Positions 41,466 to 64,000 of a stretch of DNA of 64,000 bases are shown piece after piece. Origin of the DNA: Haliangiales bacterium (GTDB lineage: Bacteria; Myxococcota_A; Polyangia; Haliangiales; Haliangiaceae). Each line of letters starts with the position of its first letter. Positions within the stretch are counted from its first letter, which is position 1. A program made the translations under genes and the position numbers. The notes under the pieces are model-generated. The model made no database searches. It saw only the letters and a list, made by a program, of their open reading frames with translations, and was not told where the DNA came from. The stretch lies in contig JBBQEX010000005.1 of the NCBI GenBank assembly GCA_038321315.1, positions 100,097 to 164,096 on the forward strand, read 5' to 3'.

Positions 41466-44400
41466 TTGATCTGGATGTCGACGCCACGAAGCCTGGCGTT
41501 TGCCCCGGCTCTGCCCGAGCAGCACTTCACCGGCAGTGGTCGGTTCGAGCTGCGCCGCGTCCTTGGCGAAGGCTCGATGGGCATCGTCTACGAGGCGTTC
41601 GACCACGAGCGCAACATGGTCGTCGCGTTGAAGACGGTGCGGCGGCTCGATGCCCAGGCGCTGTACCGGCTGAAGACCGAGTTCCGCGTTCGCGTCGATC
41701 TCGAGCACCGCAACCTCGTGCGGCTCGGCGAGTTGCTGCACGACGACGGCGACTGGTTCTTCACGATGGAGCTCGTCGAGGGGTGGCCGTTCCTCGAATG
41801 GGTGCGCGCCGGCTCCGGCGACGCCGAGGATCACGGCACGCCCGACAGTCGCCTGCGCGACGCGATCCGCCAGCTGTCGGCGGGCCTCGAGGTCCTGCAT
41901 CGCGCCGGCAACGTGCACCGCGATCTCAAGCCGTCGAACATCCTCGTCACGCGCAAGGGCCGCGTCGTCGTGCTCGACTTCGGGCTCGTCGGCGAGGCCG
42001 CGCCGGACCGCCGGAGCGCGGGGCTCGACGTCGTCGGCACCGCCGCGTACATGGCGCCCGAACAGGCGCGATCGTCGTCGGTCGGGCCGCCCGCCGACCT
42101 CTACTCGATGGGCGTCATGATGTACGAGGCGATCGGTGGTCGCCTGCCGTTCGATGGCCAACCGCTCGAGATCCTGACGCGCAAGCAGAACGAGGATCCG
42201 TTGCCGCCGCTCGTCGGCGTCGCGCCGACCGAGCTGTCGACGCTGTGCATGGAGTTGCTGCGCCGCCGCCCGCAGGATCGACCGACCACGACGGCGATCA
42301 TCGCGCGGCTCTCGCAGCGCGCGGTCACCGAGTCGGAGAAGCCGCCGCCGTTCGTCGGTCGGTCACCCGAGCTCGCGCGCCTCGATGCCGCGCTCGATCA
42401 GGTCACCAACGGGCAGGCGAGCACGGTGTTCGTCGAGGGCGAGTCCGGCATCGGCAAGACCGCGCTCGTCCGCAGCTTCGTCGATCGCGTTCACGAGCAA
42501 CGCCCCGGCGTGCTCGCACTCTACGGTCGCTGCTACGAGCGCGAGTCGGTGCCGTTCAAGGGCCTCGACAACGTGGTCGACGCGCTCGCGCACGACCTCA
42601 TGCGCCGCCACCCGGTCGACGTCGCGCTTCACATGAGCAACGACATCGACGCGCTCGCCCGCGTGTTCCCGGTGCTGCGTCGCGTGCCAGCGATCGCCCG
42701 GCTCACGGTGCCGCGCCCGGCATCGCCCGTCGAGCTGCGGGCGCGCGCGTTTCGCGGGCTGCGCGCGCTGCTCGCGTCGCTCGCGACCACGCAGACGATC
42801 GTCGTCGTGATCGACGACCTCCAGTGGGCCGACTCCGACTCGATCGCGTTGCTCCGCGAGATCCTGCACCCGCCGAACGCGCCGCGGATCCTGCTCATCA
42901 TCACGCGCCGGGGCGATGCCGGCCCGCGGCCCGAGCTGCCGGGCTCGGTCGAGGCGATCCCGATCGGCCGCCTGTCGGTGGAGGAGGGCCGCGAGCTGAT
43001 CAACCTGCTGACGCCGGGTCGCTCGGATGCCGACGCGCTGGTCGCCGACGCCGACGGCCACCCGATGTTCATGCACGAGCTCGTGCGCCACTCGGGCACG
43101 CCGCTCGCGGCCTCGCGGTTCGACAACGCGCTGTGGGCGCGCATCACGCGCATGGAGCACCGCGCGCGTCGCGTGCTCGAGCTGATCTCGGTCGCCGGCG
43201 CGCCGTTGCCGCAGGGCGTGATCGGGCAGGCCCTCGAGCTTTCGCCGCGCCGGCTCACCAAGGTGCTCGACACGCTGCGCTCGACGTCGCTCGTGCGCAC
43301 CGGCGGTACGCGCAGCAACGATCCGGTCGAGCCGTACCACGACCGCGTCCGCGAGGCGGTGGTCGCGCGCGTGCCCGAGCCACGCCGCCGCCGCTATCAC
43401 CAGCGACTCGCGACCGTGTTGCTCAGCAGCACGAGCTCGAACAAGGATCCGCTCACGATCGTCCGCCACGTCGAGGCGGCCGGCGATGCGAACCACGCCG
43501 GCGAGCTCGCGATCCAGGCCGCGCGGCGGGCCGAGGAGGCGCTCGCGTTCGAGCTCGTCGCCGCGTTGCTCGAGGTCGCGCTCCGGCTGGCGACGCTCGA
43601 CGCCGAGACCCGACGCGAGCTGCTGCTGCGGCGCGCGCAGGCCCTCAGCTACGCCGGTCGCGGCCCCGAGTCGGCCACCGCGTTCCTCGCCGCGGCCGCG
43701 GGCGCCGACGGCGAGACCGGCTTTCAGTGCCGGCGCAAGGCGGCCCACGAGCTGCTCGTCAGCGGGCACATCCACGATGGCCTCGCGCTCCTCCGCTCGG
43801 TGCTCGCCGAGATCGGCGAGGATCTCCCTCGCTCGACCGGCGCGGCGAAGCGCCAGCTGGTGTGGCGCTGGATCAAGATCGCCATCCGCGGCACGCGGTT
43901 CCAGACCCGCACGCTCGATGTCAAGGCGAGCATGGACGAGCTCCGGCTCGACGTGATGCGCAGCGCGTCGCTCGGGCTGTCGATGGTCGACGTGCTGCCG
44001 GGCGCGGCGTTCCAGGCGGGCGCGGTGCTCGTCGCGCTCCGGCTCGGTGATCGCCATCGCGTCGCGTACGCGCTGTGCTTCCACGCGATGTACGTCGCGG
44101 CGAGCGGGACCCGCGTGCGCGCGGCACGGGCGTTCGTCGCGCAGGCGCGCGGCCTCGCGCACGAGCTCGACAACCCGCTGCTGCTCGGCTGGACGCGCGC
44201 GGGCGAGGGCATCATCGAGTTCTTCGCCGGCCACTACGTCGCCGCGCTCGCGACGCTCGACGAGGCCGAGACGTACCTCAGCGAGCAGACCGTGGGCAGC
44301 TCCGCAGAGCTCAACCACATCCGCAACTTCATGATGTTCGCGTTGCGGCGCATGGGGAACTACGACGAGCTGCGCGCTCGCCTGGTCGACTACGTGCGCG

Positions 44401-45053
44401 ACGCGAACCGCCGCGGCGATCGCTACGCCGCGACCTCGTTCGTGTGGTCGTCGAACGTGGTCTGGCTCGTGGCCGACGATGTCGCGCGCGCGCGCAGCGA
44501 TCTCGCGTCGGTCGTGTGGTCGCGTATCGAGGACGGTCTCCACCTGCAGCACTGGTTCCACGTTCGCGCGCAGGCCGAGCTCGCGATGTACGAGGACGAT
44601 CGTGCGCGGATCGAGGAGCTCGTTCCCCAGCTGCGCGCGTTCCTCGGGCCCGCGTTCGCGCACGTCGAGGCGGTCGCGACCGAGACGCGATTCCAGCTCG
44701 GTCGCGTCGCGATCCGCAACGGCGATGCCGCGCTCGCGCGCAAAGAGGTCGCCGCGCTGGCTCACCTGAAGGTGGGCTACGTCCGCGCGTTCGTGAGGCT
44801 GATCCACGCCGCGGCGTTCGTGCTCGAGGGCCGGACCCGCGACGCGCGCGAGGCGCTCGCCGGCGCGATCGCCGACGCCGAGAGCACGCAGATGACGACG
44901 CTCGTCGCGCAGGCTCGCCGCCGGTTTGCCGAGCTCGGCGGCGATGTCCAGGAGATCGCCGCCGCCGATGCCGTGCTGTCGGCGCGCGGCATCGTCGATC
45001 CCGATCGCTTCCTGCGGATCTTCGCGACCTGGCCGACTATGGCTTCGTCGTGA
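41466..45053 (+). CDS. Ser/Thr protein kinase fused to an AAA/NACHT-like NTPase and a TPR region (STAND-type signalling protein).
   Basis: 1195 aa. Kinase domain: LGEGSMGIVYEA, HRDLKPSNILV, DFG and APE motifs. P-loop: VFVEGESGIGKTALV, followed by Walker B VVIDDLQWAD. About 500 aa of helical repeats follow. Confidence 0.8.
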   Translation: MIWMSTPRSLAFAPALPEQHFTGSGRFELRRVLGEGSMGIVYEAFDHERNMVVALKTVRRLDAQALYRLKTEFRVRVDLEHRNLVRLGELLHDDGDWFFTMELVEGWPFLEWVRAGSGDAEDHGTPDSRLRDAIRQLSAGLEVLHRAGNVHRDLKPSNILVTRKGRVVVLDFGLVGEAAPDRRSAGLDVVGTAAYMAPEQARSSSVGPPADLYSMGVMMYEAIGGRLPFDGQPLEILTRKQNEDPLPPLVGVAPTELSTLCMELLRRRPQDRPTTTAIIARLSQRAVTESEKPPPFVGRSPELARLDAALDQVTNGQASTVFVEGESGIGKTALVRSFVDRVHEQRPGVLALYGRCYERESVPFKGLDNVVDALAHDLMRRHPVDVALHMSNDIDALARVFPVLRRVPAIARLTVPRPASPVELRARAFRGLRALLASLATTQTIVVVIDDLQWADSDSIALLREILHPPNAPRILLIITRRGDAGPRPELPGSVEAIPIGRLSVEEGRELINLLTPGRSDADALVADADGHPMFMHELVRHSGTPLAASRFDNALWARITRMEHRARRVLELISVAGAPLPQGVIGQALELSPRRLTKVLDTLRSTSLVRTGGTRSNDPVEPYHDRVREAVVARVPEPRRRRYHQRLATVLLSSTSSNKDPLTIVRHVEAAGDANHAGELAIQAARRAEEALAFELVAALLEVALRLATLDAETRRELLLRRAQALSYAGRGPESATAFLAAAAGADGETGFQCRRKAAHELLVSGHIHDGLALLRSVLAEIGEDLPRSTGAAKRQLVWRWIKIAIRGTRFQTRTLDVKASMDELRLDVMRSASLGLSMVDVLPGAAFQAGAVLVALRLGDRHRVAYALCFHAMYVAASGTRVRAARAFVAQARGLAHELDNPLLLGWTRAGEGIIEFFAGHYVAALATLDEAETYLSEQTVGSSAELNHIRNFMMFALRRMGNYDELRARLVDYVRDANRRGDRYAATSFVWSSNVVWLVADDVARARSDLASVVWSRIEDGLHLQHWFHVRAQAELAMYEDDRARIEELVPQLRAFLGPAFAHVEAVATETRFQLGRVAIRNGDAALARKEVAALAHLKVGYVRAFVRLIHAAAFVLEGRTRDAREALAGAIADAESTQMTTLVAQARRRFAELGGDVQEIAAADAVLSARGIVDPDRFLRIFATWPTMASS

Positions 45054-46459: not shown

Positions 46460-47965
46460 ATGCTGCCGCGCATGCGGCTAGGGATCGATTTCGGCACCAC
46501 GCGGACCGTGGTCGCCGCGGTGGACGATGGGAGGCATCCGCTCGTCGCGTTCGACGACGGCGGTGAGTTTCGCGAATACATCCCGGGTGCCGCGGCGATG
46601 CGCGACGGCGAGTTGCTCGTCGGGTGGGCCGCGTCGCGCGCGATCACCGACGGCAGCGCGACGCACGCGATCCGCTCGATCAAGCGCGTGCTCGGCACGC
46701 TCGCGCCCGACGCGCCGGTCGCCGAGCTGCCGGGGCTGACCGCGCTCGAGCTCCTGACCGCGTTCCTGCGCGACCTGCGGGGGGCGCTCGTCGAGCGCTC
46801 GAACCTCGATCTCGACGACGACGAGCCTCTCGAGGCGATGGTCGCGGTGCCGGCCAGCGCACCGTCGCGCCAGCGCTGGCTGACGCTCGAGGCGTTCCGG
46901 CGCGCCGGGTTCGCGCCACTCGGCATGCTCAACGAGCCGACCGCGGCGGCCGTCGAGTTCGCGCACCGCCACCTCGGCGAGGCCGGGCGCGCGACGTCGA
47001 AGAGCCCGAAGCGCTACGTCGTGGTCTACGACCTCGGCGGCGGCACGTTCGACACCTCGGCGGTCTCGCTCGAGGGCCGGCGGTTCGAGCTGATCGCGTC
47101 GGAGGGTCTCGCGCAGCTCGGCGGCGACGACTTCGACCAGCTCGTCCTCGAGGTCGCGGGCGTGCCGGCGACGCCGAGCGCCCTCGAGCGCGCCCGCGAG
47201 GCCAAGGAGTCCTTGCGGCCGACGACGCGCAAGCTGCTCCTCGATCTCGGAGGCGGCGCCGAGCCGATCTCGATCGACGTCGCCGAGCTCTACACCCGCG
47301 CCCAGCCGCTGATCGATCAGACGCTCGTGCAGCTCGACCTGCTGTTCGATCGGCTGCGCGAGCGCGGCATCGATCCCGAGGACGCCCGCGAGCTCGGCGG
47401 CATCTATCTCGTCGGCGGGGGCGCCGCGTTTCCCGCGGTCGCGCGGACGCTGCGCGCGCGGTTCGCCAAGAAGCTGCAGCTCGCCCCGCAGCCGTTCGCG
47501 TCGCCCGCGATCGGCCTCGCGATCGCGGCCGATCCGACCGCCCACGTGCTGATCCGCGAGGCGATCACGCGCCACTTCGGCGTGTGGCGCGAGGGTGCCG
47601 CCGGCACCGACAAGATCTTCGACTCGATCATCGGCAAGAACAGCACCGGCGACATCGTCCGGCGGCGCTATCGCCCGACGCACGCCGTCGGTCACCTGCG
47701 CTTCCTCGAGTGCGGTGCGCTCGATGCCGGCGGCCAGCCGGTCCAGGACCTCGTCCCGTGTACCGACGTCTACTTTCCGTACGACCCGGCGCTCGCCGAC
47801 TCCGACGAGCTCGCCGCGGTGCCGAACCTGCGTCGCACGGACCTCATGACCAACGAGATCGCCGAGACCTATACCTACGCGGCCGACGGCACGATCTCGG
47901 TTCACATCGAGAATGTCTCGCGCGGGTACGGGCGCACGTTCACGCTCGGCGCACTGCCGCGGTAG
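46460..47965 (+). CDS. Hsp70/actin-fold ATPase (DnaK nucleotide-binding-domain-like, YegD-type) without a canonical substrate-binding domain.
   Basis: [17 protein letters not shown] (phosphate-1), [15 protein letters not shown] (phosphate-2), [21 protein letters not shown] (adenosine motif). 501 aa. Confidence 0.7.
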
Positions 47966-47973
47966 GCTGCCGC

Positions 47974-48387
<414 letters not shown>

Positions 48388-53406: not shown

Positions 53407-54432
53407 TCACGGCGTGACCGTCGTCGTGTTGGTCGCGGCCGTCCAGTGGACGTGGCCGTGCTCGAAGTCAGCGCCGCGCCCGTCGGTCTCGACGTACTCG
53501 TCGGAGGTCGGGTAGCCGAGTCGTCCGGTCTCCCAGCCGGCATCTTTCCACGCGTCGCGGATCCGGCCGTGGACCTCGTGCGCGCCGAGCTGCGGGGTCC
53601 AGTAGATCGAGCCGCGCTCGAACACCGTGTAGCGCCCGACGTGGTCGGGCGAGCCGCGCTCCTCGGTGATTGGCGCGCCGACCGTGCCGCCGCAGCCGCC
53701 GAGTGCGTCGAACTTCTCGCCGATCTTGCCGACCACCGCGTCGCGCGCGCAGTCGGCGAGGGCGGTGTAGCCCTTCGGCGGGATCAGCGTGGCGACCTGA
53801 TCGAACGGGAGCCAGTACTGCTGGTTGCCGCCGAAGTTCGCCGAGTCCGCGACGTAGACCTGGCGCGTGTCGGGGTTGTAGCCGGTGAGCGAGATGTAGT
53901 GATAGATCGTCGAGCTCGGGTAGCCGGGTGGATGATTGCTCGGCGGCGCGACGATGTTCGCGACCATCGGGAAGCCGTCGTCGACCGCGCGCACCAGGTC
54001 GTGCCACAGGAGATCGCGCTGATTTGCGGTCGGCGGATCGCTCGGCATCTCGCGCGTCGTGTACCAGCCGGCCTTGAGGTTCGCGTTCAACACGCCGGTG
54101 ACCTGGCCGATCCAGTCGGTGCCGTTCGTCGTCGTGCCGAGCTGGTTCGCCAGCGCGGCTTGACCCGGCGGCGCGATCCGCGCCGACAGCGTCATGTCGG
54201 TCGCGGTCGGGCCGCACCAGTACGACGTCGTCTGCACCTCGTAGCGAACGCCGAGCACGCGCCAGGTCGCCGCGTGCGGGGTGAAGTCGGCGCCCTGCGT
54301 TCCGGATCCATCGCCGGGATCGGGCGTGGCCCCGGTTCCCGGATCGGGCGGTGCGGTCATCGGATCGTCGTCCGTCGGCGCGCCGGCGCAACCGATCAGG
54401 GCGAGCGTGGAGAGCAGCGTCAGGCGAGTCAT
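53407..54432 (-). CDS. Lipoprotein: a papain-like (Peptidase_C39_2-like) cysteine peptidase domain plus C-terminal LGFP repeats.
   Basis: Start MTRLTLLSTLALIGCAG. ..TSYWCGPTATDMTL.. and ..IYHYISLTGYNP.. are the C39-like Cys/His motifs. C-terminus GRYTVFERGSIYWTPQLGAHEVHGRIRDAWKDAGWETGRLGYPTSDEY (LGFP repeats). Confidence 0.55.
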   Translation of the reverse strand: MTRLTLLSTLALIGCAGAPTDDDPMTAPPDPGTGATPDPGDGSGTQGADFTPHAATWRVLGVRYEVQTTSYWCGPTATDMTLSARIAPPGQAALANQLGTTTNGTDWIGQVTGVLNANLKAGWYTTREMPSDPPTANQRDLLWHDLVRAVDDGFPMVANIVAPPSNHPPGYPSSTIYHYISLTGYNPDTRQVYVADSANFGGNQQYWLPFDQVATLIPPKGYTALADCARDAVVGKIGEKFDALGGCGGTVGAPITEERGSPDHVGRYTVFERGSIYWTPQLGAHEVHGRIRDAWKDAGWETGRLGYPTSDEYVETDGRGADFEHGHVHWTAATNTTTVTP

Positions 54433-55490
54433 GGTGCGGTTCCATTCGTGAGGGTGATCGCGGATTGATCGGTCGCCTGGGTCCAGGTGATCGAGCCATG
54501 CTGGAAATCGGAGCGGCGGCCGCCGGCGACGGCGTACTCGTCGGAGATCGGATAGCCGAGCTCGCCGGTCTCCCAGCCGGCGGCCTTCCACGCGTCGCGG
54601 ATCCGGCCGTGGACCTCGAACGCGCCGAGCTGCGGCGTCCAGTAGATCGAGCCGCGCTCGAACACGCTGTACCGACCGACGTTATCGGGTGCGCCGGTCT
54701 CCGCGGTGGTCGGTGCACCGAGGATCGAGCCGCAGCCGCCGAGCGCGAGGTACTTGCGTTCGATCTCGCCGACCGCGGCAGGCGAGTTGCCGCAGCGCGT
54801 GCCGGCGTTGGCCGTCCAGAAGCCAAGCCCACCGGGCTCGCTGATCGCGAGCTGATAGCCGTCGGAGTAGGTGCGGTAGCGATCGTTCCAGCAGCTCCAG
54901 CCGGGCTGGCAGCCGTTGTAGTAGCGGACCACCGTGCTGATCCATTGATCGACCAGCGCGTGGTTGTTCGGATCGAAGCGACCGATCCATGCGCGCGCCT
55001 TGTCGTCGGTCTCGGCGTCGGTGGTGTAGGCCGAGATCTTGACCATCCACGTCGCGTAGTCGAACGCGTGCGTGGTCTGACCGGCGACCGTCAGCACGTC
55101 GTTGCTGTACTTGTTCAACGTGTCGGTGAACGTGCCGGCGTCGAACTGGAACATGCCGAGGCCACCCTGGTGAGCGCTGCATGGGCCGTCGGCGGCGCCG
55201 GCGATCACCGGGCCGCCACCGCAGTCGGGCGAATTCGGACCCTGACAGGCCCACGTCGCCTCGGACCAGCACATCGCGAGGCCGGTCTCGTCGTTCGCGA
55301 TCCCGGCGAGCAGGTACGCGTTGCCGATACCCCGCGCGCGCGCCGCGTCGCGGATCGCGGCGTAGCGCGGCAACTTCGCGTTGGTCGACAGCGCCGCGTT
55401 TTCGGGCGGCGTGTCATCGGGCGTGGCGGACGGGTCGCCGACCGAGCAACCGGCGAGGACGATCGAGAACAACGTGGGGGTTCGGTTCAC
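54429..55490 (-). CDS. Lipoprotein: a lysozyme/lytic-transglycosylase-like N-terminal domain plus C-terminal LGFP repeats.
   Basis: MNRTPTLFSIVLAGCSVG. ..NDETGLAMCW..GGLGMFQFDAGTF..ISAYTT.. resembles the SLT/GH23 E-S / GLMQ / AYN motifs (weak). The C-terminal ~110 aa are nearly identical to the downstream paralogue (GRYSVFERGSIYWTPQLGAFEVHGRIRDAWKAAGWETGELGYPISDEY). The stop overlaps the paralogue start (ATGA). Confidence 0.5.
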   Translation of the reverse strand: MNRTPTLFSIVLAGCSVGDPSATPDDTPPENAALSTNAKLPRYAAIRDAARARGIGNAYLLAGIANDETGLAMCWSEATWACQGPNSPDCGGGPVIAGAADGPCSAHQGGLGMFQFDAGTFTDTLNKYSNDVLTVAGQTTHAFDYATWMVKISAYTTDAETDDKARAWIGRFDPNNHALVDQWISTVVRYYNGCQPGWSCWNDRYRTYSDGYQLAISEPGGLGFWTANAGTRCGNSPAAVGEIERKYLALGGCGSILGAPTTAETGAPDNVGRYSVFERGSIYWTPQLGAFEVHGRIRDAWKAAGWETGELGYPISDEYAVAGGRRSDFQHGSITWTQATDQSAITLTNGTAP

Positions 55491-55609: not shown

Positions 55610-56518
55610 TCAGTGCGGCGCGTTCGCCAGCACCATCGTCCAGTGAAACACGCCGCGTGCGCCGAGCGCGCGGATCCCGAGTTCGGGGTTCGCCGATGCG
55701 CTGTTCGAGCTCTTGGTGAGCTCGGTGGGCGTCGCGCGGCAGCGGTAGACCTGGTCGGTCTTGGTGATCGCGGTGGCGTAGGGCGTGTCGAGTGCGAGCG
55801 GGTGGCCGGCGCTGGCGAGCGAGGTCTCGTAGCTCGTGTTGACCAGCGCGATCCGCGAATCGCCGCCGCTCGTGAGGACGAGCTCGCACGCGATCGCGTC
55901 GCTGACCACGCCCATGCCGGCCGCATACGGCGGCGGGTTCGCGAGCGCCGCCGCGGTGAACGCGGCGACCACGCTGAACCGGGTCGCGACCGGCGCGGGT
56001 AGCTCGAGCATCGCCCGCGCGCCGACGCCGAGATCCACGCTCGCGCCGTCGTCGACGATCGTCCACGTCCCGGTGGCATGCCAGCGATCGAGCCCGTGGC
56101 GGAAGCTGTCGAACACGACGATCGAGTCGCCCGGCGTCGCCGGATCGGGGTCGCACTCGTCGGACACGCCGTCACCGTCGCTGTCGATCGGAGCGTCGTT
56201 CGCGTACGGCGGGCAGGGGTCGCACGCGTCGCCGAAGCGGTCGCCGTCGTAGTTGTCCTGATCGGGGTTCGCGACCGATGGGCAGTTGTCCGCGCCATCC
56301 GAAATCCCATCGCCATCGGTGTCGACGGTCATGTCGGGGACGACCTCGGCCATCGCATCGGGGGCCGCGTGCGACAGGCACGCGAAGCCGGTGCCGGTCG
56401 CGCGGCAGGCCTGGTCGTCGGGGCATGCCGGCCGCGCCGGATCGCACGGCACGTCGGATGGCGCGTGAGGCGCGAAGCACCCCGCGACGAGCACCAGCGC
56501 TGCCATCGACGTATACAT
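55610..56518 (-). CDS. Lipoprotein with thrombospondin type-3 (calcium-binding) repeats.
   Basis: MAALVLVAGCFA. DTDGDGISDGADNCPSVANPDQDNYDGDRFGDACDPCP..DSDGDGVSDECDPDP are TSP3 Asp-rich repeats. Confidence 0.6.
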   Translation of the reverse strand: MYTSMAALVLVAGCFAPHAPSDVPCDPARPACPDDQACRATGTGFACLSHAAPDAMAEVVPDMTVDTDGDGISDGADNCPSVANPDQDNYDGDRFGDACDPCPPYANDAPIDSDGDGVSDECDPDPATPGDSIVVFDSFRHGLDRWHATGTWTIVDDGASVDLGVGARAMLELPAPVATRFSVVAAFTAAALANPPPYAAGMGVVSDAIACELVLTSGGDSRIALVNTSYETSLASAGHPLALDTPYATAITKTDQVYRCRATPTELTKSSNSASANPELGIRALGARGVFHWTMVLANAPH

Positions 56519-56575: not shown

Positions 56576-58390
56576 TTACCGGCCCGGATGTAGGATCTCG
56601 TCGATCCGTGCCTTCAACGCGTTGTCGCTGGTCTGCTGGGCGAGCGCGATCAGGGCGTCGGCGACCTTCGGGTTGTCGGCGAGGTGAGGCCCGAGGACGC
56701 TGGTCGCCTCGCCGCCGGCGTCGGCAGGGAGCCGTCCGTCCCGAACCACACCGGCGAGACGCGTGACCGTCGCGAGCTCGAGCTCGCGATGGCCGAGCGT
56801 GGTCCACGCGGTCCGTGCGACGGTCGCCTCCGGGTCGGCGGCGAGCGCACCGAGCGCGGCCTCGGCCTCGGGCGTCTTGGCGTCGCGCAGCGCGACCGCG
56901 ACCTGCGCGCGCACCTCGGGATCGCGATCGGTCGCGAGCGCCGCGATCGCGCCGACGTCGTCGGGCAGGCCGGCATTGCCGAGCGCGGCGAGCAGCGTGC
57001 GCTTGGCATCGGGGGTCCTGGCCTCGGCGAGCTCCTTGCGAAAGCGCGCGGTGTAGCCACGCGCGGTCGCGAGATCTCCGCTGTCGGCGAGATGCCCGGC
57101 CAGCGAGCCGAGCGTGTAGAGCGCCGCGGTCTCGAGTGGGCGATCGCCGGTCGTCGCCGCGTCGGCGCGCAGCTTGTCGATGAACGGCGCCGACTCGGCC
57201 GCGGGCTGCTCGACGATCGAGAACCGCTCGACGAACGCGAGGTACGCCGTGGGATCGGTGCGCGCGGTTTCGGACTCGAGGATCGCGCGCATCGCCTCTT
57301 GGGCCGGCCCGCTGCCGGCCGAGGTCAACAGATCGAGGATCATGCCGCGACCGGTCAGGTTGATCTCCGGATCCTCGAACAGGTCGCGCAGCTGATCGCA
57401 CAGCTCCGGGTGGAGCTGGAGCAGCGCGACCGCACGGACCGCCCACGTGTTGTTGACGCCGAGCTTGCCGGTCAGCGCCGAGATCCGCAGCTGATCGAGG
57501 AGCGCCTCGCCGGTGAGGCCGTCGATCCGCCGCTCGAGGGCCTCGCGCTGATAGCTCGTGGTCGCGTCGACCAGGTGGGCCTCGTCGATCGCCGCCTCGA
57601 CGCCCGCGCCGGCATGGACATCGACGAGCGCGATCGCGAAGTGCGACTGGACGTCGAGCATCGTGCTGCCATCGGGGCGCCGGCTCGCGAGCGTCTCGCG
57701 ATCGTCGAGCGACGCGACGTGGCCATCCGCGAGGTCGATCGAGGCGCTCGCGCTGAGGGTCGGGCGACACTCCGAGCACAGCCCGGCGGGCAGCGCGTCG
57801 AGCGTGCGATAGCTGACCCGATCGCGGACCAGCGCGTCGTCGTGGCGATGATAGTGGACGCGCGCGCGTCCACTCGGGCCCTGCTCGACGACGTCCCAGT
57901 CGGCGCCGGTCCGCAGCGTGACGATAGCCTGCGGCGCGATCGCGCTCATCGCGGCGCGAAACAGCGGCGGCGCGTCGGGGTCGAAGCGAACCGCGGCGAG
58001 GCTGCCATCGGCGCGCAGCGAGATGTAGGCGGCGCGGCCGGTGAACGTCGCCTGCACCGTCGCGTCGTCGGGGAACAGCTCGCGGCCGAGCACGCTCCAG
58101 CGATGGCGCTCGAGCTGCGGCACGCTGATCGCCAGCAGCGTCGTGTCGCCGCGCCTGCCGAGCGATCGCAGCTCGAGCTGGCCGTCGAGATCGACGTCGC
58201 CATCGGTGGCGGGGATCCCGATCGTCGCGTCGCCTTGCATGTGGGTCCGGGCCTGCCACGCCAGCGTGTAGACGTAGCGCTGGCCGAGCGGCCACGCGAG
58301 CGTCGCGCCGTCGGGCTCGCCGCGCGAGCGCAGCGCCGCGACGAGCGCGATCGCGCCGACCAGCCCGCCGATCGCGAGGCGCTTCTTCAC
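56576..58390 (-). CDS. Secreted HEAT/PBS-lyase-repeat protein.
   Basis: The GTG start (VKKRLAIGGLVGAIALVAA signal) overlaps the stop of the upstream FG-GAP gene (GTGA). C-terminal HEAT-like repeats: ..TDRDPEVRAQVAVALRDAKTPEAEAALGALAADPEATVARTAWTTLG... The upstream part of the 945-aa ORF is run-through. Confidence 0.55.
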   Translation of the reverse strand: MKKRLAIGGLVGAIALVAALRSRGEPDGATLAWPLGQRYVYTLAWQARTHMQGDATIGIPATDGDVDLDGQLELRSLGRRGDTTLLAISVPQLERHRWSVLGRELFPDDATVQATFTGRAAYISLRADGSLAAVRFDPDAPPLFRAAMSAIAPQAIVTLRTGADWDVVEQGPSGRARVHYHRHDDALVRDRVSYRTLDALPAGLCSECRPTLSASASIDLADGHVASLDDRETLASRRPDGSTMLDVQSHFAIALVDVHAGAGVEAAIDEAHLVDATTSYQREALERRIDGLTGEALLDQLRISALTGKLGVNNTWAVRAVALLQLHPELCDQLRDLFEDPEINLTGRGMILDLLTSAGSGPAQEAMRAILESETARTDPTAYLAFVERFSIVEQPAAESAPFIDKLRADAATTGDRPLETAALYTLGSLAGHLADSGDLATARGYTARFRKELAEARTPDAKRTLLAALGNAGLPDDVGAIAALATDRDPEVRAQVAVALRDAKTPEAEAALGALAADPEATVARTAWTTLGHRELELATVTRLAGVVRDGRLPADAGGEATSVLGPHLADNPKVADALIALAQQTSDNALKARIDEILHPGR

Positions 58391-61300
58391 AGGTTCCTCG
58401 GAGAGAACTCGCGCTTGAGCGCCGGCATGTTGATGTGGAGCTCGCGATTCCACATCACGTGATCGAGTGGCAGGCCGTGCCACGAGAAGATCTCGGCCTC
58501 CGCGGTATCGATCAGGTAGTCGACGAACACGCTGATCTTGCCGTCGAGCAGCCGCGTGTGGATGCTCGCGTCGGTGTAGACGTCGAGCACCACGGCGTCG
58601 ACCGGACCGGACAACGAGGCCGAGACGTTGAACGGCAGGTCGAGGCTGGCCACCATGACCACGCCGCGCACGCCGACCGAGAGTCCGGGGACGCCGATCC
58701 CGAGGCTGCCGACCGCGTCGATCTTCGCTTTCGGCTCGAAGTGGAGCTGGAGCTTCTCGACCCCGCCGCTGACCGGGCCCGCGACGTCGAACGAGCTCGT
58801 GTAGCCGTAGTTGGCAGCGACGCCGAGCGACACGTAGCACGGGATGCCGAACACGGTGAACGGCTTGGTCGTGTTGTAGATGGTGACGCGATTGTCGTAG
58901 TTCGGTCCTTCGTAGGTCTGGTTGTTCGCGTAAACGCGCTCGAACGGCTCGATGATCTGCTTGTCCATGAAGATCAGGTGGCCCTTGATGTCGGCCGCGT
59001 GACCGTCGTGCCCGGCCGACGCCTCGAACGCGCCGTCGACCACGGTGTAGGTGTGGGCCAGGATCCCGTCCTCGACCGAGTTGACCGCGCCCTGCAGGAG
59101 ATCGCCGGGGTTGTAGCTCGCCGTCCCTGCCGTCGGGATCTTGATCAGCTCGGCGGGATCCGGGACGCTCGTGCGCGGCACCGTGAACGACGCGTACGCG
59201 TAGACCTTCGCGTCGGTGTCGACCGAGTCGACCTTCGTCTTGGTCGACTTGTTGACGGTCAGCGTCCAGCCCCCACCGTAATCCCAGCGGGCCTCGAGGA
59301 AGCCGCGGAGGCCGTAGCGCTGGCCGTCCTGCGGAAACGACAGCGCCAGCGTGCTGCGCGTCGCCAGCGTGTCGGCGAGCGGGTCGAGCGCGGCGGGGGT
59401 TTGCCACGGCCACGTCTGGGCCTCGGCATCCATCCGGGCACGCTGGCGCCCGAACGCATCCTCGAGCGTGCGCAGGCTGGCCAGGTCACTCGCGGTCAGG
59501 TTGCTGCCGGTCCCGTTGCTCGCGTCGGCGAAGTCGCTCGGCGTGAACGAATCGATACACTTCTGGTAGGTCGCCGCGCGGGCGGTGCCGAGGATCCCGG
59601 CGTACTCGCGCACGAACGCCTTGGGCGACCAGTCGCACTTCTTGCTGTCGAGCGCGAGGCATCCGTGATCGACGAGGCCCGAGCGCGGGTCCTTGTGATT
59701 CCATTCGATGCGGAGCGTGTACTCGAGCTCGGTGATCGCGTTGCGCAGCCGGCCGTCGAGGACACTGGTGCAGGTGACACCCCGATCGTCAGGCCCGAAG
59801 ACCGGTGGACACGGTCCGTTCGTGCACGTGCAGTGCTGCGTCTTGTAGAAGCCGCGGAGGGCGACCTCGACCGCGTCGACCTGCGCGAGCGCGTTCTGAT
59901 AGTTGACGACGCGCGTGTCGATCGCGGCACGCTCGTCGAGGTTGATCGGCCCCTGGGCGTCGTGCATCTGCTGCTGCCAGGCCCATCGATCCGAGGTGTC
60001 GTAGGGTTGCGTGATGCCGGTGGCGATCGCCGCCTTGATCGCGTCGAGGTCCGCCTGGCCTTCGGCGTCGTATCCCGGGACGAGCTGGAACATGTCGGCG
60101 ACGCTCTCGGTGAAGAACGGGTTCTTCACCTGCGTGGTCGGGACGATCACGGTCGCGTCCTGGCGCTGACCCGAGCTCGCCTGGGTCTGGAACATCAGGC
60201 CATGGCGGGACGCGCGATCGTTGGCGTCATCCATCGTGAGGTAGAAGCCGAGGCCCGGGTTGGAGCCCGACATCGCGACGCCGTAGATGCACTCGTCGTC
60301 GCCGAGACAGGTCGCGGCCGCCTCCTCGAAGCGCGCGTAGTCGTAGTAGCGCTTGTACGCGTACTCCTTGCAGCTGGTGATCGCCGTGCCGTGCGCTTCC
60401 CAGTCGGGGTGCTGGGGCGCGAGGTTCGCGCCGTGAGCGAGCCCGAGTGACCGCGCCGTGATGAAGCTCCCGATCGGATCGGCGCCGGCGATCGCGGCGG
60501 TGTCGAACGCCTGGTAGTGCGCGTTGTCGGCGAACATGTCGATCCGCGCCACCGGCAACAGCGGCTTCATGTCGTGCGGCTCGAGGATCGTCGCCGTCGC
60601 GGTCCCGCTCAGCGAGTTGTGGAACTTGTCGATCGCGGCGGCCTCGCACACGGTCTTCTTCGCCGCGGAGCACGAGCTCTCCTGATACGCCTGGTTCGCG
60701 CAGGTCAACAGCGACGGCGCGGGATCGCACCATCCGGGCGCGTGCTGCACGCCGCGTCCGGGTGACGACAACGCGCCGACCGGCTGCGCGCCCGACTGGG
60801 CGGCGAGCTGCGGGATATCGAGCGTGGTGGCGTTGGTGGTGCGGAACGTGCCATCGCCGTTCGAGAACCCGACCGGGACCGTCGTCCATCCCGCCGCGCC
60901 GGTGAGCGCGATATCGCCGAACCCGTCGCCGTTGAAGTCGCCGCCGATGGCCCGCGCGCCGGCCTGCGCCGCGTACACCGGGAGATCCGCGACGGTGCGA
61001 TTCATGTCGCGGAACCCACCGTCGCCGTTCGACAGCGCGACCGGCACCGTGGTCCAGTTGACGCCGCCGACGAGCGCGATGTCACCGCGGCCGTCGCCGT
61101 CGAAGTCGCCCGCGACCGGCATCGCGCCGGTCTGCCCCGCATAGACCGGGAAATTCGACACCCACGAGTTGGTCACACCGAACGAGCCGTTGCCGTTCGA
61201 GAACGCCACCGGGATCGTGTTCCAGCCCTGGCCGCCGACGAGCGCGAGATCACCGCGGCCGTCGCCGTTGAAGTCGCCGGCGACTGGACGACTGCCCTGT

Positions 61301-61905
61301 GTCGCCCAGACTGGAAAGCCCCACACCGCCGTGTTGGTGACGCGAAACGTGCCATCACCCCGCGAGAACGCGATCGGGATCGAGCCCCAGCCGGGACCGC
61401 CGGTGAGCGCGATGTCATCGAGGTGATCTCCGTTGAAGTCGCCAGCGACCGCGACGACGCCCGGCTGCGACGCCCAGCTCGGGAACCCGGACACGCCGGC
61501 ATTGGTGACGTGGAACGTCCCGTTGCCGTTGGAGAACGCGACCGGCACCGTGCCCCAACCGGCGCCACCGGTCAGCGCGACGTCCATCTTGCCGTCGCCG
61601 TCGAAGTCGCCGGTGACCGGCATGGCGCCCGACTGCGTCGCGTAGAGTGAGAAGTTCGCGATGCTCGCGGTCACCGGTCGCCACGTGCCGTCGGCGTTCG
61701 AGAACGCGACCGGCATCGCCGACCAGTACGAGCCACCGATCACCGCGAGGTCCGAGATGCCGTCGCCGTCGAGATCGCCGAACGTGTGCCAGCGGTAGTT
61801 GGGATTGCTGTCGGCGCGGGTCACCCCACTACCCGCGACCACGGCGATCGCGCCGAGCCAGAACACACGGTGGGACGTACGGACGAGACGAGCGAGGTTG
61901 GACAT
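58387..61905 (-). CDS. Large secreted protein: an N-terminal seven-bladed FG-GAP/VCBS-like beta-propeller plus a ~750-aa C-terminal region of unknown function.
   Basis: 1172 aa. Signal MSNLARLVRTSHRVFWLGAIAVVAGSGVTRA. Seven repeats of GDF(D/N)GDGxxDIAL(T/V)GGxGWxT(V/I)PVAFSNGxGTF. The Cys-rich C-terminal region has no recognisable catalytic motif. Confidence 0.7.
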   Translation of the reverse strand: MSNLARLVRTSHRVFWLGAIAVVAGSGVTRADSNPNYRWHTFGDLDGDGISDLAVIGGSYWSAMPVAFSNADGTWRPVTASIANFSLYATQSGAMPVTGDFDGDGKMDVALTGGAGWGTVPVAFSNGNGTFHVTNAGVSGFPSWASQPGVVAVAGDFNGDHLDDIALTGGPGWGSIPIAFSRGDGTFRVTNTAVWGFPVWATQGSRPVAGDFNGDGRGDLALVGGQGWNTIPVAFSNGNGSFGVTNSWVSNFPVYAGQTGAMPVAGDFDGDGRGDIALVGGVNWTTVPVALSNGDGGFRDMNRTVADLPVYAAQAGARAIGGDFNGDGFGDIALTGAAGWTTVPVGFSNGDGTFRTTNATTLDIPQLAAQSGAQPVGALSSPGRGVQHAPGWCDPAPSLLTCANQAYQESSCSAAKKTVCEAAAIDKFHNSLSGTATATILEPHDMKPLLPVARIDMFADNAHYQAFDTAAIAGADPIGSFITARSLGLAHGANLAPQHPDWEAHGTAITSCKEYAYKRYYDYARFEEAAATCLGDDECIYGVAMSGSNPGLGFYLTMDDANDRASRHGLMFQTQASSGQRQDATVIVPTTQVKNPFFTESVADMFQLVPGYDAEGQADLDAIKAAIATGITQPYDTSDRWAWQQQMHDAQGPINLDERAAIDTRVVNYQNALAQVDAVEVALRGFYKTQHCTCTNGPCPPVFGPDDRGVTCTSVLDGRLRNAITELEYTLRIEWNHKDPRSGLVDHGCLALDSKKCDWSPKAFVREYAGILGTARAATYQKCIDSFTPSDFADASNGTGSNLTASDLASLRTLEDAFGRQRARMDAEAQTWPWQTPAALDPLADTLATRSTLALSFPQDGQRYGLRGFLEARWDYGGGWTLTVNKSTKTKVDSVDTDAKVYAYASFTVPRTSVPDPAELIKIPTAGTASYNPGDLLQGAVNSVEDGILAHTYTVVDGAFEASAGHDGHAADIKGHLIFMDKQIIEPFERVYANNQTYEGPNYDNRVTIYNTTKPFTVFGIPCYVSLGVAANYGYTSSFDVAGPVSGGVEKLQLHFEPKAKIDAVGSLGIGVPGLSVGVRGVVMVASLDLPFNVSASLSGPVDAVVLDVYTDASIHTRLLDGKISVFVDYLIDTAEAEIFSWHGLPLDHVMWNRELHINMPALKREFSPRNL

Positions 61906-62039
61906 GGGCGTACCTGGTGACAGGTGTGACCCCTGCTCGATGCGTGGGTTTCGTGCGCCCGTCGGCGGAATCCTCAGAAATCTGAGCAGTCGCGCTGAAG
62001 ATCTCCACGGTTACGCGCGGCCCCCCGTTTGCTTGAGCA

Positions 62040-62498
62040 GTGCTCATGCGCCATCTCATCTGGGTTGTCCTGATCGGCTGCGGCGCCCAGCAGGGCACGT
62101 CGAGCGATCCGGTGTTGAGCGGCAACACCTGCAGCCTCCACACGTCGGCGACGACCTGCCAGATGGAGATGGACTGCACCTGGCTCGGCACCGGCTGCGC
62201 TTGTCCACCGAACGATCCGACCTGTACGTGCTCGGAGGGAACGTGCGCGTCGACCTCGGGCTCGGGCTCGGGATCCGGATCGGGGTCGTCGGGGACGGGC
62301 TGCGCGTGCCCGAACGGCGGCGTGTGTTACGAGCAGATCGGTGGGCCCGCGCAGCAGTCCGGGACCGAGCCGCAGATCGAGTGCACGACGCCGACCGCGG
62401 GGACAGGCGATCCGTGCACGCGGATCGCTGGTGAGGGCACGTGTCGCGACAGCCCGACGGTGTCCGGCCTCTGCGTCTGCGACAACGGCATTCGCTAA
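62040..62498 (+). CDS. Small cysteine-rich lipoprotein.
   Basis: MLMRHLIWVVLIGCGAQQ (lipobox LIGC), a GSGSGSGSGSS linker and 20 Cys. The stop converges on and overlaps the HK stop. Confidence 0.5.
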   Translation: MLMRHLIWVVLIGCGAQQGTSSDPVLSGNTCSLHTSATTCQMEMDCTWLGTGCACPPNDPTCTCSEGTCASTSGSGSGSGSGSSGTGCACPNGGVCYEQIGGPAQQSGTEPQIECTTPTAGTGDPCTRIAGEGTCRDSPTVSGLCVCDNGIR

Positions 62499-63550
62499 CG
62501 CGCGAGCGCGATCGTGAAGCGCATCCCACCACCAGGTCGAGGCGCGTGGGCGATCGAGCCACCGTGCCGGGCCGCGATGCGCTGGGCGATCGCGAGGCCA
62601 AGGCCGATGCCCTGGCGCGGTCGCGTCGGGTCGACACGCGCGAACGGCACGAACAGCTCGCCGTGATCGGCGGGCAGGCCGGGGCCGGTATCGTCGACCT
62701 GGATCGCGTATTTGCCGGCCTCGCTCGCGAGCCCGATCGTGACGCGACCGTTCGGCGCGGCGGCCCGCAGCGCGTTGGTCGTCAGGTTCGAGATCGCGGT
62801 CGCGAGCAGGCTGGCGTCGCCGCGCACGATCGCGTGGTCGATCGCGAGCGTCGCGGTCAACGTGACGCCGGTGCGGGTCGCGACCTCGGCGTACTGCGCG
62901 GCGACCTCCTCGACGAGCTCGGCGAGATCGATCTCGGTCGCGTCGGCCTCGCGGATGGCGTCGGCCTGCGCGAACCGCAGCATCGCCTGCACGACATCGC
63001 CGAGTCGGCGGAGCTCGCCGAGCACGGTCGTCGCGGTGGTCTCCCACTCCGCGGCGGTGCGCGGCCTGCGCAGGTGGACCTCGAGCTCGCTGCACACCGC
63101 GGCGATCGGCGTGCGGAGCTCGTGCGACGCGCTCGCCGAGAACGCCCCGAGCGCTTCGTAGCCGCGCTGCAGTCGATCGAGCAGCGAGTTGATCGCGTTC
63201 GCGAGCGGCCGCAGCTCGTGATCCTCGGCCGGCATCTCCATGCGGCGATCGAAGCGGTCGATCGAGATCTCCGCGGCGGTCTGCGCCGCGCGATCGATCG
63301 CCGCCATCGCGCGTCGCGCCGCGAGCCGCGAGGCCAGCACCGAGAGCCCGATGCCGAGCGGTGCGGCGATCGCCAGGGCGACGAGGATCTCGGTCTCCGG
63401 ATCGTCGGGCGCGCCGCCGTCCGCCTCCTCGCGCTCCTCGAGCGTGACGATGACGTAGGCGACGCCCGCGAACACGAGCAGCGCGACGAGCGTCGCCGCG
63501 GCGGACCACATCGAGAGCGACCGGCGCAGGCTGCGCGGATCACCCGGCAT
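62495..63550 (-). CDS. Two-component sensor histidine kinase.
   Basis: 351 aa with two N-terminal TM segments, the HisKA H-box ASASHELRTPIAAV, and HATPase N/G boxes (NLTTNALRAA, DTGPGL, GIGLGLAIA). Confidence 0.8.
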   Translation of the reverse strand: MPGDPRSLRRSLSMWSAAATLVALLVFAGVAYVIVTLEEREEADGGAPDDPETEILVALAIAAPLGIGLSVLASRLAARRAMAAIDRAAQTAAEISIDRFDRRMEMPAEDHELRPLANAINSLLDRLQRGYEALGAFSASASHELRTPIAAVCSELEVHLRRPRTAAEWETTATTVLGELRRLGDVVQAMLRFAQADAIREADATEIDLAELVEEVAAQYAEVATRTGVTLTATLAIDHAIVRGDASLLATAISNLTTNALRAAAPNGRVTIGLASEAGKYAIQVDDTGPGLPADHGELFVPFARVDPTRPRQGIGLGLAIAQRIAARHGGSIAHAPRPGGGMRFTIALAR

Positions 63551-64000
63551 CGCGTGGCTCCGTCGCGCGCAGGCGGTAGCCGATGCCGCGGATCGCCTCG
63601 ATGACGATCGCGTGCGTGCCGACCTTCCGCCGCAGGTTCGAGACGTGGACGTTGATGATGTTCGTGCCGGGCTCGAACTCGTAGCCGAACACGTGCAACA
63701 GGAGATCCTTTCGACTGAACACCTCTCCCTGACGGCGCAACAGGAACGCGAGCAGCGCGTGCTCGCGCGGCGACAGCGAGATGTCCTTGCCGTCGATCGA
63801 CACGCCGAGTTTGTCGTCGCGCATCACCAGGCTGCCGCACGTGAGCGGCGACCAACGCGGGCCGGTCGCGCGCCGCACCAGCGCGCGGAGGCGCGCGAGC
63901 AGCTCGACGTACTGGAACGGCTTCACCACGTAGTCGTCGGCGCCGCGATCGAGCGCCGCGACCCGCGCGTTCACGCCATCGCGCGCCGTGAGCACGAGGA
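63540..64000 (-). CDS. OmpR/PhoB-family response regulator (winged-helix output); the N-terminal receiver runs off the window end (partial).
   Basis: ..LTARDGVNARVAALDRGADDYVVKPFQYVELLARLRALVRR.. is the receiver C-terminus, then ..LSPREHALLAFLLRRQGEVFSRKDLLLHVFGYEFEPGTNIINVHVSNLRRKV..GIGYRL (trans_reg_C). The stop overlaps the HK start by 11 nt. Confidence 0.8.
   Translation of the reverse strand, partial: LVLTARDGVNARVAALDRGADDYVVKPFQYVELLARLRALVRRATGPRWSPLTCGSLVMRDDKLGVSIDGKDISLSPREHALLAFLLRRQGEVFSRKDLLLHVFGYEFEPGTNIINVHVSNLRRKVGTHAIVIEAIRGIGYRLRATEPRDAG

Follow-up and report, generated by a model that had tools for sequence, protein, structure and literature searches.

The formation of yolk and plasma lipoproteins depends on large lipid transfer proteins (LLTPs), which, to our knowledge, are usually treated as animal-specific. 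A β-barrel joined to a helical domain is the conserved hallmark of this superfamily; in MTP, the lipid cavity is formed by the A and C β-sheets, held in place by the pit of the barrel and by the helical clamp (PMC6717300). Here, we describe two overlapping genes, A and B, from a Haliangiales bacterium (Myxococcota_A, Haliangiaceae), and compare their products with this architecture. The genes lie on the minus strand of a 64,000-nucleotide stretch of DNA with a GC content of ~70% (GenBank assembly GCA_038321315.1, contig JBBQEX010000005.1, positions 100,097 to 164,096), which we call the window and to which all coordinates refer. By open reading frame (ORF) and translation, gene A (58387..61905) encodes 1172 amino acids (aa) with a signal peptide, FG-GAP repeats, and a C-terminal region that we call domain X. 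Gene B (56576..58390) encodes 604 aa, modeled as an LLTP-like β-barrel plus α-solenoid. A literature search found no paper describing LLTP-type proteins encoded by bacteria.

Predicted structure of protein B

An AlphaFold2 model of B was built from 13 homologues, 555–649 aa long, and reached a pLDDT (predicted local distance difference test) of 87.9 and a pTM (predicted template modeling score) of 0.63. In the model, a β-barrel at aa 37–260 (57611..58282, minus strand), with 11 strands and two interposed helices (aa 109–116 and a 13-residue helix at aa 142–154), precedes an α-helical solenoid of 19 helices at aa 276–600 (56591..57565, minus strand). Both features that mark the N-terminal module of the LLTPs were present, namely an N-terminal barrel that encloses a helix and, directly after it, a two-layer helical superhelix.

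The nine best Foldseek matches of the model in the PDB were all LLTPs (among them MTP, 1.3e-17; apoB100, 8.6e-13; lipovitellin, 2.1e-12; and honeybee vitellogenin, 7.6e-11), and each of these alignments covered ~640 columns, that is, the barrel and the solenoid together. The identity of B to LLTPs was 12–14%. Two Pfam families matched the solenoid: HEAT_2 with 32.5 bits (cut-off 27.7) and Vitellogenin_N with 24.3 bits (cut-off 24). HEAT_2 matched all 13 homologues and Vitellogenin_N eight of the 13 (best E 9.9e-10), and the profile of the B family matched the helical domain of human MTP (residues 390–594) with an E of 1.1e-3.

Judged by its modeled fold, B is a bacterial protein homologous to the N-terminal β-α-1 module of the LLTPs (vitellogenin/lipovitellin, apoB, MTP, and apolipophorin). 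The model also indicates that B is not a complete LLTP, because no A and C sheets come after the helical domain; the last helix is followed almost at once by the end of the chain, at aa 604.

An earlier sequence-only reading of the window had called the product of gene B a HEAT-repeat protein. The name stands insofar as HEAT_2 scores above its cut-off, but it describes no more than part of the C-terminal half; the first ~260 aa are a barrel, and the fold as a whole is that of an LLTP. A stronger version of the same idea would make the result a product of chance or annotation: B would be a generic HEAT-repeat protein, its likeness to LLTPs would come from the helical repeats, and its position beside domain X would mean nothing. 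It is true that HEAT_2 is the strongest Pfam match on B and that Vitellogenin_N barely exceeds its threshold in the protein of the window. However, Foldseek places the LLTPs (1e-17 to 1e-9 over the whole length, barrel included) at least four orders of magnitude away from the generic solenoids, the best of which reached 2.7e-5, and HEAT repeats do not account for a barrel of 224 residues into which two helices are inserted. The positional part of this idea is taken up with the loci below.

Layout and conservation of the gene pair

The product of gene A is identical to the NCBI-called protein P0001 and that of gene B to NCBI protein P0003; the 1172-aa ORF of the sequence-only reading is therefore as described there. 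That reading had also seen an overlap between the stop of A and the GTG with which the next gene begins, and we found the two sharing bases in a GTGA (CTGTGAAG) at 58387..58390 (minus strand). A ribosome-binding-like GAGGA lies ~5–9 nt upstream of the start of B, at 58395–58399. With the shared GTGA and this motif just upstream, translational coupling of A and B is plausible.

The products of both genes look exported. A begins with a signal peptide (MSNLARLVRTSHRVFWLGAIAVVAGSGVTRA, followed by DS) at aa ~1–31 (61813..61905, minus strand), and B with a hydrophobic segment at aa ~1–24 (58319..58390, minus strand) that may be a signal peptide or a signal anchor and has a pLDDT below 50 in the AlphaFold2 model. 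These segments were recognized by reading the sequence and not by a predictor. The homologues of B have similar N-termini and few cysteines. The earlier description of the downstream HEAT-repeat protein as secreted agrees with this hydrophobic segment and with the HEAT_2 match.

Every one of the 21 evaluable loci had X and B side by side on the same strand. These comprise the window, L002–L006, L007–L016, L018–L021, and L023; L001, L017, and L022 end at contig edges and were not scored. The pair occurs in Myxococcus, Corallococcus, Cystobacter, Vitiosangium, Citreicoccus, Nannocystaceae, Bradymonadia, and other metagenome-assembled genomes (MAGs). Starting from B, every readable locus (L002–L006 and one JGI contig known from its annotation) had an X homologue adjoining. 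Starting from X, scans with hidden Markov models (HMMs) of 15 loci in species-representative genomes found B directly downstream and on the same strand in 14; in the fifteenth, L017, the contig ends before the position of B. L023 showed the same X–B arrangement. Among the loci compared, no third conserved gene was found around the pair.

On these sequences, A and B evidently form a conserved two-gene module across Myxococcota, with X always encoded beside a B homologue. The suggestion that A has a cognate partner gene is thus borne out, by the overlap of the two genes here and by their adjacency in many genera. Since the X–B loci are only 20–30% identical, adjacency in 21 of 21 cannot be chance, and the explanation of B as a generic HEAT-repeat protein beside a meaningless neighbor, already disfavored by the fold, is in our opinion very improbable.

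The usual gene order is X and then B. L002 (7929–12235) has B and then X, and so, probably, has the JGI contig that carries P0018, judged from a HEAT_2-annotated neighbor of 621 aa. This less common order matches the domain order of LLTPs, with the barrel and helices first, and gene order in the module is not fixed. One Nannocystaceae MAG (CAYOBQ01) holds two X–B pairs, L011 and L021, which indicates that the module can be paralogous. At L001 (54–4884), which encodes the X protein P0002, no B gene follows downstream; the contig reaches only ~340 bp farther upstream, so that a B-then-X order is possible. The convergent neighbor of P0002 is an 841-aa FG-GAP_3 protein, and BLASTP found no significant similarity between it and the FG-GAP region of the window.

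Domain X and its family

Domain X makes up the C-terminal ~777 aa of A (58387–60720, minus strand). Searches of Pfam, NCBIfam, and PDB sequences gave no significant match, in line with the earlier remark that ~750 C-terminal aa could not be recognized. Crude secondary-structure estimates, which are weak, divide it in two. The first ~450 residues are cysteine-rich and mostly helical (A aa 396–855; 59341..60720, minus strand), with the motifs HPxWExxGxxVxSCxEYxYxxYYDYxRFxDAAAxC and GCLxxxxxCDWSP. The last ~300 residues (A aa 856–1172; 58390..59340, minus strand) lean toward β-structure and are the best-conserved part of the family, with the motifs GVPVxV, GxxGxLxL..LP, LxG, and W.G and invariant P, G, and W columns in an alignment of 22 loci (A8).

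Three cysteines, C117, C354, and C362 in X numbering, were invariant in four alignments (A2, A4, A5, and A6), and C388 was invariant or nearly so. Family-wide, the invariant columns held Cys, Gly, Pro, and Trp only, which suggests a role in structure or binding and not in catalysis. The possibility that X is an enzyme was rejected, as no invariant residue looks catalytic and the His-containing motifs of close relatives are not kept across the family.

When 1.84 billion cluster representatives were searched exhaustively with HMMER, 481 proteins or clusters had an E ≤ 1e-3, and 269 of them had an E ≤ 1e-10. Most members are 750–1000 aa long, mainly stand-alone proteins of ~800 aa, with cleavable-looking signal peptides and 9–19 cysteines (12–19 in 28 of the 30 listed). 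In NCBI, the X homologues mostly bear the name "hypothetical protein" and stand beside a "HEAT repeat domain-containing protein." X can accordingly be described, from these sequences, as the core of a large, unnamed, and apparently secreted, disulfide-rich family of ~800-aa proteins.

The count depended strongly on the method. A word-indexed search, run with a single sequence and with a seven-sequence profile, found two members of the family against the 481 from HMMER; its closest relative of X was P0002, a stand-alone protein of 763 aa with 27% identity. Word-indexed search badly under-reports the homologues of fast-diverging families such as this one.

Comparison of the X profile with the B profile (hhalign) revealed no relation between the two.

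Possible relation of domain X to the LLTP sheets

Our preferred reading of the locus, to which we give about an even chance, is that A and B form a split, bacterial LLTP-like complex that binds lipid, in which the C-terminus of X gives the missing sheets and the propeller tethers or targets the whole. Both proteins would leave the cytoplasm through the Sec pathway, in amounts matched by translational coupling, and would assemble into a heterodimer outside it. The barrel pit and the helical clamp of B would then hold the β-leaning C-terminal ~300 aa of X, as the LLTP module holds its A and C sheets, and the assembly would create a hydrophobic cavity able to bind or shuttle lipid or other hydrophobic cargo outside the cytoplasm. 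The six-repeat FG-GAP propeller, gained by X here, would most likely tether or target the complex to a surface ligand.

The idea that X carries LLTP sheets came from the fold of B, before we met the NCBI name of an X homologue from Myxococcus eversor (WP_163870124.1), "DUF1943 domain-containing protein." In Pfam, DUF1943 corresponds to entry PF09172, the open β-sheet of vitellogenin. PF09172 was the only Pfam match on this protein, and it matched this and one near-identical protein with an E of 0.26 and 11 bits (cut-off 23.7), at aa 649–739 and profile positions 201–286. Three consensus sequences of X matched PF09172 at E 0.03–0.042 in the same register (profile 198–292), with no other family on that region; they were derived from 22 locus-derived C-termini, from 55 database representatives, and from the Myxococcus-type subfamily. 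Mapped approximately through alignment A8, the sub-threshold match (Vit_open_b-sht, profile ~198–292) corresponds in the window to X ~620–704 (58609..58863, minus strand). Residues 636–940 of apoB span the whole PF09172 profile, and when X was compared with lipovitellin plus apoB by hhalign, the top alignment, itself not significant, fell in the same register.

Several results weigh against the split complex. All the sequence links between X and the LLTP sheets were sub-threshold, at 11–14 bits against the Pfam cut-off of 23.7, and PF09172 did not match 16 other native X proteins or two of the five consensus sequences. Profiles of X made from 7, 111, and 22 sequences retrieved no LLTP chain from the PDB, only noise. 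We also compared X with the sheet domains of MTP (604–884), apoB (636–1112), and lipovitellin (606–921), each 100% identical to its PDB chain: hhalign of the X C-terminus gave nothing significant, and hmmsearch with shuffled controls gave p values of 0.008–0.5, likewise not significant. An AlphaFold2 model of X from a two-sequence alignment was unusable (pLDDT 27.9). Finally, nothing in LLTPs corresponds to the ~450 additional cysteine-rich, helical residues of X, the domains of LLTPs follow one another in the opposite order to the usual X-then-B arrangement of the genes, and no X–B fusion occurred among 152 X proteins. The relation of the X C-terminus to the LLTP open β-sheet is therefore a weak, sub-threshold hint and not demonstrated homology.

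N-terminal modules of A and other possible roles

Upstream of X, protein A carries six FG-GAP/VCBS-type repeats of 55–56 aa each, at aa 43–377 (60775..61779, minus strand), which were delimited from Pfam, motif positions, and the tandem period. The Pfam scores were 99.1 bits for FG-GAP_3 (cut-off 26.9) and 50.9 bits for FG-GAP (cut-off 22.1). GDF/LxGD motifs occur at aa 43, 99, 155, 210, 266, and 322, and each repeat has a calcium-loop-like DxDGDGxxD motif with the pattern G-D-[FL]-[DN]-G-D, in which repeat 3 has H for the second G. Mutual identity of the repeats was 44–64% (mean 54%).

The sequence-only reading had proposed an integrin-alpha-like FG-GAP propeller of seven near-perfect, ~48-aa repeats. 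The propeller itself agrees with the Pfam scores; the period, the degree of identity, and the number of repeats were not as stated there, since six are recognizable. Canonical propellers have seven blades, and a cryptic seventh could escape a count made from sequence. The DNA of the region is repetitive, as had been noticed, with a 168-nt period at 60854–61284 (Tandem Repeats Finder) that agrees with the 55–56-aa length of the protein repeat.

Only one of the 152 X-family proteins examined, the protein of the window, has FG-GAP fused to X. The propeller therefore appears to be a lineage-specific accessory, and X the conserved part. Other N-terminal modules found in a few members are Laminin_G_3, a lactonase-type propeller, cadherin-like domains, and fn3.

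FG-GAP here, and the lectin, cadherin-like, and fn3 modules of relatives, are typical of adhesion, and the pair could be understood as a complex for adhesion and recognition at the cell surface or in the matrix. B would be a scaffold for the recognition of proteins or patterns, as the N-terminal module of vitellogenin binds receptors and microbes, and X a disulfide-stabilized structural adhesin, with no lipid cargo. The many cysteines of X that could form disulfides fit this explanation. So does a weak, recurrent match to C8-3_MUC4 (PF23263), a sub-module rich in cysteine that belongs to mucin/vWF D assemblies, at X ~132–153 (A aa ~527–548; window 59900–60330) on the motif AAAxCxxDxxC. It was found in 14 of 55 X members (best E 5e-4), and on the family consensus it reached an E of 8e-5 and 22.3 bits (cut-off 25). 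The β-α-1 module of LLTPs, moreover, also makes protein–protein contacts, for example with apoB and with PDI (PMC6717300). However, most X members have no adhesion module, and neither A nor B ends in a visible sorting signal of the cell-wall or MYXO-CTERM type. An adhesin would also leave unexplained why B lost or never had the sheets and why X is its obligate neighbor. We consider this role rather unlikely.

The same interchangeable binding modules could also serve an effector, and the sequence-only reading had suggested an adhesin or a toxin with a cognate partner. X would then be a secreted effector or toxin, membrane-active or otherwise harmful, of predatory myxobacteria; its N-terminal modules would aim it at prey, and B would be a chaperone, carrier, or immunity protein that keeps it soluble or inactive until delivery. 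The two genes are tightly coupled and always together, the C-terminal stretch of X is glycine-rich as well as β-leaning, and the hosts are mostly predatory Myxococcota and Bradymonadia, all of which this proposal accommodates. Our results did not support the toxin part. Searches of X for toxin or pore-former families gave no meaningful match, the one isolated hit being to Ntox3 (E 0.04, in one of 55 members). A polymorphic toxin layout was rejected, as the parts that vary are the N-terminal additions, and the C-terminal ~777 aa are a conserved core shared by at least 481 clusters; it is thus the C-terminus, and not a trafficking N-terminus, that is conserved. Nor did this region resolve into common carbohydrate-binding or Ig-like domains only, the result that had been named as speaking against a toxin or adhesin. 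A small, variable immunity gene downstream was also rejected: every locus has the conserved LLTP-like protein of 555–649 aa, which by its size and conservation differs from the immunity proteins that are known. The neighborhood has no conserved secretion-system genes, and the paralogous pairs of L011 and L021 showed no signs of polymorphic cassettes. Taken together, an effector is unlikely.

Implications of a possible split LLTP-like complex

A further possibility, which we regard as tentative and on the doubtful side, is that X–B is a prokaryotic lipid-carrier system that shares ancestry with the animal LLTPs, in which B would supply the barrel and clamp, X the sheets, and the two together a lipid cavity outside the cell. 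In that event, the module with which vitellogenin, apoB, and MTP build lipoproteins would be older than animals or would have been exchanged between myxobacteria and early eukaryotes, and the predatory, social myxobacteria would possess a so far undescribed means to capture or move lipids.

If the module that defines the LLTPs has a conserved bacterial version, this would be relevant to how animal lipoproteins arose and would provide a simple system for study. Here, the module would be split from its cargo-binding part and locked to an uncharacterized partner family of at least 481 clusters, and its pairing with an LLTP-like B would offer the first functional lead for this large family of "hypothetical proteins." The pair is present in cultivable strains of Myxococcus, Corallococcus, and Cystobacter, which makes these ideas directly testable.

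Genomic surroundings

Upstream of A, an OmpR-type response regulator and a histidine kinase are encoded at 62495..63995 (minus strand). The non-coding gap between this two-component pair and the start of A measures 589 bp (61906–62494); no sigma-70-like promoter or Rfam family was found in it, and the promoter, terminator, and Rfam scans of the locus were uninformative. Regulation of A–B by the adjoining two-component system is possible; the two-component pair is not conserved at other loci.

Downstream, 57 bp after the stop of B, starts the gene of a lipoprotein-like protein of 302 aa with thrombospondin type 3 repeats (Pfam TSP_3; 55610–56518, minus strand), which may be co-transcribed with A–B. 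Two adjacent genes (53407–55490) encode secreted proteins with C-terminal LGFP repeats, one with a Peptidase_C39_2 domain (53407..54591, minus strand) and one with an N-terminal domain to which no family was assigned (54429..55490, minus strand); both may be cell-wall-directed enzymes. Neither the two-component pair nor the TSP_3 and LGFP proteins were conserved beside X–B at the other loci compared.

Farther away, the plus strand encodes a Ser/Thr kinase fused to an AAA_16 ATPase with a long helical C-terminus (1195 aa, 41466–45053) and an atypical Hsp70-like protein (501 aa, 46460–47965), a gene content typical of Myxococcota. The ORF listing also contains a small lipoprotein-like ORF at ~47990–48387 (plus strand), whose product combines a long (PT)n linker with a C-terminal domain rich in cysteine.

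Comparison with known systems

Polymorphic toxin/immunity pairs resemble A–B in joining a large, secreted, multidomain protein to a tightly coupled downstream gene. They differ in that the C-terminus of X is a conserved core without a toxin domain match, and in that B is large and conserved.

The FG-GAP/VCBS propellers, known from the N-terminal domain of integrin alpha and from bacterial FG-GAP_3 proteins, share with A the repeated units with a DxDGDGxxD-like calcium loop and the strong scores for both Pfam families. A has six clear repeats where the canonical number of blades is seven, and in the X family the propeller is an accessory.

With the HEAT-repeat proteins (PBS-lyase-type HEAT_2, alphaRep), B shares a C-terminal half that scores on HEAT_2 and aligns with alphaRep, and NCBI names its homologues accordingly. 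B differs from them by the 224-residue N-terminal barrel and by an arrangement specific to LLTPs.

Comparison with the LLTPs brings out both differences and likenesses. B is bacterial (Myxococcota and Bradymonadia), has 604 aa and no A and C sheets, and is 12–14% identical to them; the candidate sheet-bearing part, X, is encoded by a separate gene, usually upstream, with ~450 extra cysteine-rich residues, and lipid binding is only putative. As in LLTPs, however, a barrel with interposed helices is followed in B by a two-layer superhelix, and the full length of B matches each of the four solved classes. A functional unit of two polypeptides, as A–B would be, also occurs among LLTPs, in MTP with PDI and in apolipophorin II/I, which is cleaved into two chains.

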